From sequence record MW250785: a DNA stretch of 64,000 nt; one strand, given 5' to 3'. The first letter of the stretch is position 1. The number at the start of each line of letters is the position of its first letter. Positions 25,467 to 28,873 of this stretch are shown in pieces. The notes below the pieces were generated by a model that saw nothing but the letters and a program-made list of their open reading frames with translations, was not told the DNA's origin and did no database searches. Both the position numbers and the translations under genes were made by a program. The stretch is from Escherichia phage UPEC03.

Positions 25467-26900
25467 ATGCAAAAATTTAATGAACTGAATAGCCTGATCA
25501 CCTCAACTGATTCCTATAAAGTGTCCCACTGGTTGCAGTATCCACAAGGCACTGATGCAGCGATGTTCTATATTGAATCTCGCGGTGGTAAGTTTGATGA
25601 AGTAGTAACCGCTGGCGTTAACTTCGTTGCGCGGGTTCTTGCTGAACCAATTACCATGAAACAAGTTGAGTTGGCACGGGTACTTTACCGTAAGCACTTT
25701 GGGAAAGAGATTTTCAACTACAAAGGGTGGAAGAAGATCGCAGAACTGGGTTATGTCCCTGTTACTTTCCGTGCGATCCCAGAAGGTACGGTTGTTCCGG
25801 TTAAAAATGCCGTTGCGACTGTGTACGCCGAACGTGAATTCTCATGGGTGGCTGGGTGGCTGGAGACAATGACGATTCGCGGTATCTGGTATCCGTCATC
25901 TGTAGCAACGCTATCGCGCGAGTGTAAAAAGGTTCTGGCTCATTACCTTGATATGACTTCTGACCTGACTGGTGAAGCATATAACATCACACTGGGTACA
26001 CGTCTGCATGATTTCGGGGCGCGTGGCGCGACCTCTGCTGAATCTGCTGGTATTGGTGGGCTGGCACACCTCTATAACTTCATCGGGACTGATACCGTTG
26101 AAGGTATGATTATGGCAATCAGTCTGTTTGCGGACTATCAAACTCTGTTTGACGAAGTTGAAAACGTCGAAGCAATCGGTGTTTCAATTCCGGCTCGCGA
26201 ACATTCGACTACGATTTCCTACGGTAAAGAGAACGAAGACGAAGCATACAAAAACAGCATCGAAATGTTCGGTACAGGGTTCTACGCTTGTGTGTATGAT
26301 TCCTGGGACTATAAAGGCGCTGTAGATCGCATCGCTGAATATAAAGAGCAAATCATTGCTGCGGGTGGTACTCTGGTTGTTCGTCCTGATTCCGGTGATA
26401 TGATTGATAACATCATGTACACCCTGCGTAAACTGGGCGAAATCTTCGGATACACCGTAAACAGCAAAGGTTATAAAGTTCTGCATAATTCAGTTCGAAT
26501 CATCCAGGGCGACGAGATCCACGGGCCTGAAACAATCAACCGTGTGTTAAGTTGGATGGAAGCGAACAAGTGGGCGAGTGAGAACATCGCGTTCGGTATG
26601 GGCGGCGGTTTGCTGCAAGAAGTTACCCGCGACACTCAAAAGTATGCTGAAAAACTGTGCGCTATCCGCGTGAATGGTGTGTGGAAAGGTGTTTACAAAT
26701 GCCCGAAAGGTTCCGAATGGAAACAGAGTAAGAAAGGTTTGCTGATGACCATCACTAACGGTGTGGAATTCAAAACAATCGACACTCTGGAAACTGAGAT
26801 TCCTGACGGGTGGCGTGATGCGATGATTACGTATTACGACAACGGTGTATTAAACACCTCCGATACAGTAGGGGTTATCCGTGAGCGAGCAAGGATTTAA
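25467..26900 (+). CDS. nadV: Nicotinamide phosphoribosyltransferase (Nampt/NadV family)
   Basis: 477 aa; N-terminal …TDSYKVSHWLQYP… signature and overall length typical of Nampt; phage NadV is known from KVP40-type T4-like phages. Confidence 0.85.
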   Translation: MQKFNELNSLITSTDSYKVSHWLQYPQGTDAAMFYIESRGGKFDEVVTAGVNFVARVLAEPITMKQVELARVLYRKHFGKEIFNYKGWKKIAELGYVPVTFRAIPEGTVVPVKNAVATVYAEREFSWVAGWLETMTIRGIWYPSSVATLSRECKKVLAHYLDMTSDLTGEAYNITLGTRLHDFGARGATSAESAGIGGLAHLYNFIGTDTVEGMIMAISLFADYQTLFDEVENVEAIGVSIPAREHSTTISYGKENEDEAYKNSIEMFGTGFYACVYDSWDYKGAVDRIAEYKEQIIAAGGTLVVRPDSGDMIDNIMYTLRKLGEIFGYTVNSKGYKVLHNSVRIIQGDEIHGPETINRVLSWMEANKWASENIAFGMGGGLLQEVTRDTQKYAEKLCAIRVNGVWKGVYKCPKGSEWKQSKKGLLMTITNGVEFKTIDTLETEIPDGWRDAMITYYDNGVLNTSDTVGVIRERARI

Positions 26901-27189
26901 TATCCGCGCCAACGATAACGGATCAGTAGTCTTCTACAACAATCAGCCCCTTGTCGCTCGCAAGGGGCTTTTTTGTAAGTTGGTGGGCTACGGGTTCAAG
27001 TTGGAACAGGTGGACAACGCGACACTAAAAGAGGTTGTTCGAATTGCTTATCTGCTGAAAGATAAAAAAGATGAACACCGTGCTATTGCAATGCTTGAGA
27101 AATTAGGCGAAAATTATTGCTTCGTGGTGAATCGTGGGTATAAGTACGAAACGATCGCCTTATTTGAGAAAGGACTTGGTGAATTATGA
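26881..27189 (+). CDS. Hypothetical protein
   Basis: 102 aa ORF with GTG start overlapping nadV 3' end. Confidence 0.45.
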   Translation: MSEQGFNIRANDNGSVVFYNNQPLVARKGLFCKLVGYGFKLEQVDNATLKEVVRIAYLLKDKKDEHRAIAMLEKLGENYCFVVNRGYKYETIALFEKGLGEL

Positions 27190-28025
27190 TTACCACAATC
27201 AAAGAAGGGGTTGACCTCCATTTAGGCGACTCCGTAAAGCTGATTAAACAGCTTGAATCTGGTTCTGTTGACTTGACCATAACTTCGCCTCCGTATGACA
27301 ACTTGCGCCATTATAACGGCTCTGGTGATGTCTGGGGTGAACACGTATGGAAAGAGTTGATATCGGAACTGTACCGCGTTACCGCTCCTGGTGGTGTGGT
27401 TGTGTGGGTTGTGGGTGACGCGACTATCAACGGTAGTGAAACGGGTACATCTTTCCGTCAAGCCTTGTACGCGATCGAACAAGGTTTTCGGTTGCATGAT
27501 ACGATGATCTATCACAAAACCGCTCTACCGAAGAACCATAACCGATACGAACAGGACTTTGAATACATGTTCGTGTGGACAAAAGGCGCACCAAAAACAT
27601 TCAACCCGATCCGCATTCCGTGTAAGTTCCCTGAAAAGGAAACCGCACGACAAAACAGCTACTTTTCCGAAACCAACGAAAAGAACCGTTCAGCCCGTTC
27701 CGGTAAGAAACGTAAACCTGTTGGCAAGGATAAAATTAAGGGTAATATCTGGTATTACGCTGTAGGGCGCAATCACTCAACGAAGGACGAGATTGCATTC
27801 AAACACCCAGCAATATTTCCTGAACAACTGGCAGAAGATCACATTAAAACGTGGACGGTTGAAGGGGACTTGGTTCTTGATATTTTCTCTGGTTCTGGTA
27901 CAGTTATGAAAATGTCGATACTAACCAACAGACGGTTCAAAGGCTTCGAACTGATGGAGAATTATTATCACGATTCTATTCTTCGTGTTCAGCCATACGT
28001 TAACAATCTGGAATCTTTTCTATGA
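27186..28025 (+). CDS. DNA amino-methyltransferase, beta-class (N4-cytosine or N6-adenine)
   Basis: Motif IV TITSPPY near N-terminus, motif I DIFSGSGT near C-terminus (beta permutation); the SPPY variant is more typical of N4C-MTases. Confidence 0.8.
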   Translation: MITTIKEGVDLHLGDSVKLIKQLESGSVDLTITSPPYDNLRHYNGSGDVWGEHVWKELISELYRVTAPGGVVVWVVGDATINGSETGTSFRQALYAIEQGFRLHDTMIYHKTALPKNHNRYEQDFEYMFVWTKGAPKTFNPIRIPCKFPEKETARQNSYFSETNEKNRSARSGKKRKPVGKDKIKGNIWYYAVGRNHSTKDEIAFKHPAIFPEQLAEDHIKTWTVEGDLVLDIFSGSGTVMKMSILTNRRFKGFELMENYYHDSILRVQPYVNNLESFL

Positions 28026-28873
28026 GTTATTTGGGTGTTATCCCGTATACAGGTAACAAGCAATCGCTATTGCCTGAACTCTTCAAGCTGTTCCCCGAAA
28101 GAAGTTCATACATGCGTTTCATTGATTGTTTTTGCGGTGGTCTTAGTGTGTCGTTAAACGTCCCTAAACCCGTTCTAAGCAACGATTATGATAAGACGCT
28201 TATTGATATGTATGAGCGTCTTAAAACGCTTCCTGACCTGTCTCCGGTGCGAGAATTGATTGCATCGAAGGGACTGGGGAAAGACAAGAAAGAAGAGTAT
28301 CTGAAATTCCGTGATGAATACAACCAGAATAAAGATCCTTTATGGCTCTATGTCCTGATCCTGCATTCATTCAGCAACGTTAACCGGACAAACGACAAAG
28401 GCGACTTCAACGCTAATTTTGGATGCCGGACGCTCAACGATGCAACAGTAAAACGCTTTGAACATTTCAAAAAGAATGTGAAAGGCATTGAGTTTTCCAG
28501 TGGTTCATTCCGTGACATTGATATCTGTGAAAATGATTTCGTGTATTGCGATCCTCCGTATCTGATCACTGATGCGGTGTATAACAAATTCTGGAACGCA
28601 GATCACGAACGCGAGTTATATGCTTTCCTTGACTCCCTGCATGAGCGGGGTATTTGGTTTGGTTTGTCCAACGTGACTCACCATGCCGGAAAACAAAATG
28701 ATACCCTGATTGAATGGATGCAGAAATACCGCGTTCATAATCTGGATAAAAAGTATCTGTTAGGCCAGCATACCGACTCTTACGAGCAAAACAAAACGCA
28801 AGAAGTCTACGTGTGCAACTACCAGAAACGCGACGTAAATACATTCCCTTTAACACTGAACGATTTAATGTAG
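28022..28873 (+). CDS. dam: DNA adenine methyltransferase Dam (T4 Dam-like)
   Basis: IPYTGNKQSLLPEL, FIDCFCGGLSVSLNV, DFVYCDPPYLIT match recalled T4 Dam. Confidence 0.92.
   Translation: MSYLGVIPYTGNKQSLLPELFKLFPERSSYMRFIDCFCGGLSVSLNVPKPVLSNDYDKTLIDMYERLKTLPDLSPVRELIASKGLGKDKKEEYLKFRDEYNQNKDPLWLYVLILHSFSNVNRTNDKGDFNANFGCRTLNDATVKRFEHFKKNVKGIEFSSGSFRDIDICENDFVYCDPPYLITDAVYNKFWNADHERELYAFLDSLHERGIWFGLSNVTHHAGKQNDTLIEWMQKYRVHNLDKKYLLGQHTDSYEQNKTQEVYVCNYQKRDVNTFPLTLNDLM

Follow-up and report, generated by a model that had tools for sequence, protein, structure and literature searches.

An orphan class-beta methyltransferase gene, predicted to be N4-cytosine-specific, inserted beside dam in the T4-like Escherichia phage UPEC03

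Introduction

To our knowledge only a small number of N4-cytosine methylases from phages has been characterised. A serine in the catalytic motif IV (SPPY) is the usual signature of the N4-cytosine DNA methyltransferases (MTases; EC 2.1.1.113). Every characterised SPPY enzyme in the literature that we searched (N4CMT, M.DraR1, the Haloferax CTAG enzyme HVO_0794 and M.PspGI) makes N4-methylcytosine (m4C), activity was lost in an APPA mutant of N4CMT, and SPPY versus DPPY has been used by authors as a predictor of the modified base. Here we describe a stretch of 64,000 nucleotides from Escherichia phage UPEC03 (record MW250785; the whole stretch is referred to as the window) in which a gene encoding an enzyme with a TSPPY loop, here called M1, lies directly upstream of M2, a gene for an orthologue of the T4 Dam methylase.

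Phage T4 carries beta-gt and gene 42 between uvsX and gp43. The RB43 and RB49 groups of T4-like phages have been reported to be without genes for non-canonical bases and to be able to transduce (PMC8056088). The DNA of the Slopekvirus KP27 was reported to be resistant to EcoRI, NsiI, SnaBI and EcoRII despite retained sites.

We propose the following explanation for the locus, to which, taken as a whole, we assign a probability of roughly 65%. The genes orf102, M1 and M2 form an overlapping string among the early/middle genes of a Pseudotevenvirus, the closest complete genome to which is without the genes of a hydroxymethylcytosine (hmC) pathway. M2 would place methyl groups on adenine N6 within GATC, which the genome keeps. 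M1 is a functional orphan class-beta MTase which, in a single sub-lineage, was inserted between orf102 and dam as a precise cassette the size of its open reading frame (ORF), and would transfer methyl groups to N4 of cytosine within a short sequence. Together with Dam and two further MTases it would pre-emptively mask sites too frequent to be lost by mutation, many restriction sites of 5–6 bp having instead been purged from the genome.

Results and Discussion

Two tandem amino-methyltransferase genes

A preliminary description of this DNA had reported two tandem amino-MTases, a beta-class enzyme with an SPPY motif followed by a T4 Dam-like enzyme with DPPY, and the motifs, their order and the overlaps were all confirmed in the sequence (Table 1). 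Both are intact, real genes and not chance ORFs. With orf102 they are co-directional, each junction being a 4-nt ATGA stop/start overlap. The same description had M1 and M2 translationally coupled; the overlap is there and suggests coupling, although stop/start overlaps are frequent throughout the surrounding gene cluster (e.g., endonuclease VII/nrdD). No T4 late promoter (TATAAATA) was found near M1 and M2, and no dedicated promoter could be recognized, sigma-70-like matches being at chance level (16 found, 13.4 expected).

The window is 98% identical to Enterobacter phage EC-F1, whose record it matches over approximately the initial 64 kb, and falls within the genus Pseudotevenvirus (RB43/Margaery group, T4-like). 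A megablast search with the locus gave about 30 full-length matches at 97–98% identity in phages of Enterobacter, Cronobacter, Citrobacter and Klebsiella, EC-F1 being the best. In public records M2 is named 'DNA adenine methylase', while the names given to M1 are inconsistent ('type II N4-methylcytosine DNA methyltransferase (group beta)', 'DNA methylase', 'yhdJ'/'fokIM'). Both genes are already catalogued in these near-identical public phage genomes and the pair is ordinary; the two belong to well-known enzyme classes, and identical M1 proteins have been deposited, in part with the same annotation.

The motif IV serine and the base modified by M1

M1 matched the Pfam family PF01555 (N6_N4_Mtase) over residues 28–262 with 132 bits (cut-off 26.7). 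Its motifs stand in the permuted order of class beta, with TSPPY (motif IV) followed by the target recognition domain (TRD) and then by FSGSGT (motif I), and its fold agreed with those of the solved beta-class enzymes in a fold comparison. The sequence [VIL]TSPPY was present in all 120 of the closest database homologues (60–97% identity), and T33, S34, P35, P36 and Y37 are invariant columns in the family alignment. When 1.8 billion cluster representatives were searched exhaustively using HMMER, 11,622 clusters were matched at E<=0.001, 533 of them at E<1e-30. The best 150 representatives of 50%-identity clusters (approximately 40–55% identity) contained a single SPPY in 138 cases. The other 12 comprised four proteins with SPPY and a second xPPY/F/H, one with SPPW, two with SCPY and five which were N-terminally truncated, and neither Asp nor Asn was found at the position of the serine in any of the 150.

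The family has thus kept the motif IV serine over a very long period and, since no D/N variant occurred across the sampled clusters, it presumably matters for the chemistry. Because of the TSPPY loop and the fixation of its serine through a very large family we consider it likely that M1 methylates N4 of cytosine, within a short sequence. The remark in the preliminary description that SPPY is more typical of N4-cytosine MTases agrees with the characterised enzymes listed in the Introduction. In some M1-family proteins (591 aa, 299 aa) a further segment resembling an amino-MTase is fused on, its loop reading NPPY or NPPF, and these proteins are candidates for natural dual-domain enzymes.

A number of observations weigh against the assignment of M1 to cytosine. 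Neither sequence profiles nor the fold comparison part M1 from N6-adenine enzymes. The closest solved sequences were Thermus TTHA0409, rotifer N4CMT, M.PvuII and M.MboIIA, all of them weak matches. A profile made from 22 M1-family proteins scored N6-adenine enzymes (M.MboIIA, DPPY, 82.6 bits; CcrM, DPPY, 75 bits; M1.HpyAVI, 73.6 bits) about equal to the SPPY enzymes TTHA0409 (83.3 bits) and N4CMT (81.9 bits, N4-cytosine), and the N4-cytosine enzyme M.PvuII, which has SPPF, lower (59 bits). Full-length alignment to the profile, TRD included, was obtained only for M.MboIIA, which modifies adenine, and no specificity is given for TTHA0409, the best Protein Data Bank (PDB) sequence match of M1, in the papers which mention it. 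The curated NCBIfam models closest to M1 describe adenine-specific enzymes, though M1 failed both by a wide margin (YhdJ, NF008572, 62.3 bits against a cut-off of 292; CcrM, NF050803, 38.6 bits against 830). Motif IV is also not an absolute predictor, as M.NruI, which makes N6-methyladenine (m6A), and M.Sbo13I, which makes m4C, both have DPPY. The literature searched contained no methylome or biochemical data on M1 or its close homologues, and no methylome or restriction data bearing on M1 or M2 from Pseudotevenvirus, Karamvirus or named relatives.

These similarities would fit an M1 which is an N6-adenine MTase despite its SPPY loop, the phage then carrying two m6A marks, as with DpnM/DpnA or the two MboI methylases, and no m4C. 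We regard this as unlikely, as the literature searched yielded no characterised SPPY enzyme which makes m6A, the serine is fixed as described above, the NCBIfam scores lie 4- to 20-fold under their cut-offs, and the names given by JGI and GenBank are automatic.

Target inference for M1 was based on observed/expected ratios for all 4–6-mers in the M1-positive EC-F1 and 59 kb of JC221, compared with the M1-negative Slopekvirus mtp5. No site was tolerated solely where M1 is present, which also counts against the assignment to N4 of cytosine. The differences found were opposite in direction, TCCGGA, CACGTG and CTCATC having been eliminated where M1 is present, and are probably due to the restriction repertoires of the hosts. 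The failure of the genome to yield an inferable target site would agree with an enzyme whose substrate is not double-stranded phage DNA but, for instance, RNA, single-stranded replication intermediates or host DNA, and whose role lies in regulation or host takeover instead of anti-restriction. Certain class-beta relatives do act on single-stranded DNA or RNA, METTL3/14 and MTA1 are distant fold matches, and the loop at residues 160–200 of M1 is basic and of low model confidence. Even so we consider such a substrate improbable, and N4 of cytosine in phage DNA remains the preferred assignment.

M1 is an inserted gene under purifying selection

In KKP_3664 (a Citrobacter phage of the same genus) and Miro (a Klebsiella phage, Slopekvirus) orf102 overlaps dam directly (...CTATGAGTTATTTGG), and in the window the M1 ORF exactly parts the orf102 and dam sequences which are joined there. 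TATGA is found at both junctions of M1 (27185–27189 on the left, 28021–28025 on the right), so that the orf102-stop/dam-start overlap is recreated at each end. At a threshold of at least 80% identity M1 was present in approximately 30 of about 154 phage records which cover 80% or more of the 4.3-kb locus, and was confined to the Margaery/EC-F1 sub-lineage and Yersinia phage JC221. It had no counterpart in Miro at the locus, in mtp5 genome-wide, or in the Pseudotevenvirus KKP_3664. M1 had been called unusual next to Dam, which is half right, the insertion being seen in this minority of the records sharing the locus. In JC221, M1 occupies the same position with 84% amino acid identity and an extra ORF of 73 aa lies between it and dam; the comparison suggests that the site is a hot spot for ORF-sized cassettes. 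Farther homologues of M1 were found in unrelated contexts of large phage-like contigs. No restriction endonuclease gene adjoined M1 here or in three homologue contexts, and a role as part of a Type II restriction-modification (R-M) system was ruled out on the ground that no endonuclease is adjacent.

The GC content of M1 and its GC content at third codon positions are those of the neighbouring genes. The ratio of nonsynonymous to synonymous substitution rates (dN/dS) was 0.028 against JC221 and 0.095 against Margaery. Between the window and JC221 the amino acid identity of M1 (84%) exceeded that of Dam (70%) and orf102 (50%), making it the best conserved of the three, and M1 proteins with at least 99% identity were encoded by 25 or more isolates, the hosts of which belong to four genera. 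Strong purifying selection together with better conservation than Dam and orf102 indicates that M1 is functional, and these comparisons mark it as a gene which is expressed and selected, as opposed to debris.

Were M1 instead a decaying or inactive hitch-hiker, that is, a selfish cassette which leaves no methyl mark, its lack in most phages sharing the locus, which shows it to be dispensable, and the absence of any M1-attributable phenotype in the k-mer comparison would be readily explained. The intact ORF with every family-invariant residue kept, the dN/dS of 0.03–0.10 with conservation above that of Dam and orf102, and the near-identical proteins across four host genera make this very improbable, and we continue to regard M1 as a working enzyme.

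M2 is an orthologue of T4 Dam

M2 matched PF02086 in Pfam with 120 bits (cut-off 22) and scored above the curated cut-off of the Dam model TIGR00571 (154.9 bits, cut-off 114.85). It aligned end to end with the sequence of the T4 Dam structure (PDB 1yfj, E=7e-84) and was 55% identical to the Dam of the T4 record. The motif order is that of class alpha, with FCGG (motif I, residues 37–40) followed by the TRD and then DPPY. In T4 Dam numbering, K11, F111, S112, N113, R116, N118, R130, DPPY and the S-adenosylmethionine (AdoMet) loop are kept, while M114V, I115N, P126N and K129C are substituted; the residues compared are those which we take to be the DNA-contacting, GATC-reading positions of the T4 Dam–DNA structures. 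GATC is plentiful and is not avoided: the window contains 417 sites, and the 1168 counted in EC-F1 amount to 0.96 of the Markov expectation. M2 is thus the Dam of this phage, most likely producing Gm6ATC.

Cytosine in the phage DNA

Searches with T4 gp42 using tblastn against the window and the whole of EC-F1 recovered nothing but a match to thymidylate synthase (22% identity, E=1e-4), and beta-glucosyltransferase gave no match in the same sequences. Margaery has no gene between uvsX and gp43. As EC-F1 is without the genes of the hmC pathway, the DNA of this phage is predicted to contain ordinary cytosine, which is compatible with methylation at N4. The preliminary description had held that the N4-cytosine call would be informative about the use of hmC and had proposed a search of the genome for gene 42. 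No dCMP hydroxymethylase gene was present in either sequence and the DNA of the RB43 group is reported to be canonical (PMC8056088), so the link is unnecessary. An hmC-linked role for M1 was ruled out on the lack of gp42 and beta-gt. A homologue of the gp56 dCTPase/dUTPase is kept without gp42 (EC-F1 69442–69975, 46% identity to T4), and the retention of gp56 in RB43-type phages has been flagged as unexplained (PMC8056088).

Further methyltransferases and avoidance of restriction sites

Two more MTase genes lie outside the window in EC-F1 (71732–72463 and 126482–127405), giving four in total. One encodes a C5-cytosine MTase with a full-length match to M.HhaI (E=1e-64, PF00145), for which GCGC is a candidate target. 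The other encodes a protein of 243 aa with an NPPF loop and weak matches to the Pfam families N6_Mtase and MTS.

Of the 64 hexamer palindromes, 28 had zero copies in the 178 kb of the EC-F1 genome and two more occurred once, where 22–52 copies of each are expected. Among 5-mers and Type IIS sites, GGWCC, CGTCTC, CTGAAG and sites of the RCCGGY type (ACCGGC) and CCWWGG type (CCAAGG) were nearly missing, while CGATCG, GATATC, GAATTC, TGATCA, TCGCGA and TTCGAA stood at or above expectation. The window repeated the EC-F1 zeros, with no copy of AAGCTT, GGATCC, CAGCTG, CCATGG, CCGCGG, CTGCAG or CGTACG. The purged set varies among relatives (TCCGGA, 0 here and 95 in mtp5; GGATCC, 0 and 72), that of the sister genus Slopekvirus being similar to the set of EC-F1 and not identical. 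The reported resistance of KP27, a member of that genus, to enzymes with retained sites belongs to the same picture. A division of labour may be inferred in which rarer 5–6-bp sites are purged and frequent short sites are methylated. The layered anti-restriction strategy suggested at the outset from two MTases was, if anything, understated, as four MTases and extreme site avoidance in EC-F1 point to such a role.

Organization of the locus and neighbouring genes

The features of the locus are collected in Table 1. M1 and M2 have as neighbours genes for nicotinamide phosphoribosyltransferase (NAMPT), orf102, glutaredoxin/NrdC, endonuclease VII and NrdD.

Table 1. Positions of genes, motifs and other features of the orf102–M1–M2 locus in the window.
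Feature	Position	Strand	Remarks
orf102 (102-aa ORF)	26881..27189	+	From the ORF list; PHROG 7497
Terminator-like hairpin with T-run	26945..26969	+	3' of the NAMPT gene, within the orf102 frame
ATGA, orf102 stop/M1 start overlap	27186..27189	+	
M1, orphan class-beta DNA amino-MTase, predicted N4-cytosine-specific, 279 aa	27186..28025	+	
M1 motif IV TSPPY, catalytic loop, aa 33–37	27282..27296	+	act tcg cct ccg tat
M1 motif I FSGSGT, AdoMet-binding loop, aa 234–239	27885..27902	+	Aligned with TTHA0409, N4CMT, CcrM and M.MboIIA
M2, T4 Dam orthologue, class-alpha D12 family, 283 aa, predicted m6A at GATC	28022..28873	+	
ATGA, M1 stop/M2 start overlap	28022..28025	+	Part of the right-hand TATGA copy
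M2 motif IV DPPY, aa 177–180	28550..28561	+	gat cct ccg tat; corresponds to T4 Dam D171–Y174

The orf102 product matched its PHROG with E=7e-63, no function being assigned in PHROG, and its dN/dS was 0.08–0.21. The gene stands immediately 5' of dam in KKP_3664 and Miro and 5' of M1 in JC221, and is conserved as the upstream partner of dam in every related phage. GenBank annotators differ on its start, giving 102 aa or 68 aa. The strong, GC-rich hairpin within its frame (AGCCCCTTGTCGCTCGCAAGGGGCT followed by TTTTTTG) has a 10-bp stem with six GC pairs; the stem is kept in KKP_3664, Miro and JC221, as are the amino acids it encodes, and it may be an element which serves both for coding and as an attenuator.

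Directly upstream is the NAMPT gene (window 25467–26900; NAMPT_N and NAPRTase domains). At the corresponding position elsewhere in the genome a cytidyltransferase is annotated in Margaery and a nicotinamide mononucleotide (NMN) adenylyltransferase/NUDIX protein in JC221. Together with NAMPT these would form a phage pathway for salvage of nicotinamide adenine dinucleotide (NAD).

Wider distribution and meaning

The earlier interpretation is supported in part. It stands for the Dam-like M2 and for a second MTase which is likely to act on N4 of cytosine; the connection with hmC does not, and rarity beside Dam holds only by half. The M1 family derives mostly from metagenome contigs and was an orphan in the three contexts examined. 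More than 8000 metagenome sequences were found at approximately 60–70% identity, with a highly conserved TRD. It is possible, though we advance this only tentatively, that this family of orphan phage MTases with an invariant SPPY writes one shared m4C mark on one short motif in many hosts and environments, in which case m4C would be a common and overlooked modification of phage DNA. More speculatively, the cytosine methylated by M1 may be that of GATC, a site which would then bear both m6A and m4C with Dam. If M1 makes m4C, the target of a single member would annotate thousands of phage genes, and the mark would, beside the striking site avoidance of EC-F1, help to account for the escape from restriction of T4-like therapy phages with cytosine DNA which infect Enterobacter, Klebsiella, Cronobacter and Citrobacter.

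Comparison with known systems

The S-P-P-Y/F loop of M1 is shared with the class-beta N4-cytosine enzymes N4CMT (8S9M) and M.PvuII (1BOO) and with TTHA0409 (2ZIE). Beyond motifs IV and I these three proteins resemble M1 weakly in sequence, and their TRD bears no relation to that of M1. M1 is encoded by a phage as an orphan, in contrast to M.PvuII, which is part of an R-M system, and to N4CMT, which bears a chromodomain. The class-beta N6-adenine enzymes M.MboIIA (1G60), M.BceJIV (8URK), M.RsrI and CcrM have DPPY where the M1 family has SPPY.

M2 has the alpha-class motif order, FxGG and DPPY in common with T4 Dam (PDB 1YFJ/1Q0S), and differs from it in small N-terminal insertions and a 17-residue C-terminal tail (YQKRDVNTFPLTLNDLM, residues 267–283, window 28820–28870) with no counterpart in T4 Dam. 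The M2 gene lies between NAMPT/orf102 and nrdC-49-nrdD, while T4 dam lies between genes 56 and 61, and the substrate of M2 is predicted to be ordinary-cytosine DNA in place of the glucosyl-hmC DNA on which T4 Dam acts. As in this phage, the RB43 and RB49 groups and the Slopekvirus phages KP15 and KP27 are T4-like and cytosine-containing, are without gp42, and carry Dam and a C5 MTase. Slopekvirus (Miro at the locus, mtp5 genome-wide) differs from this phage in being without M1.

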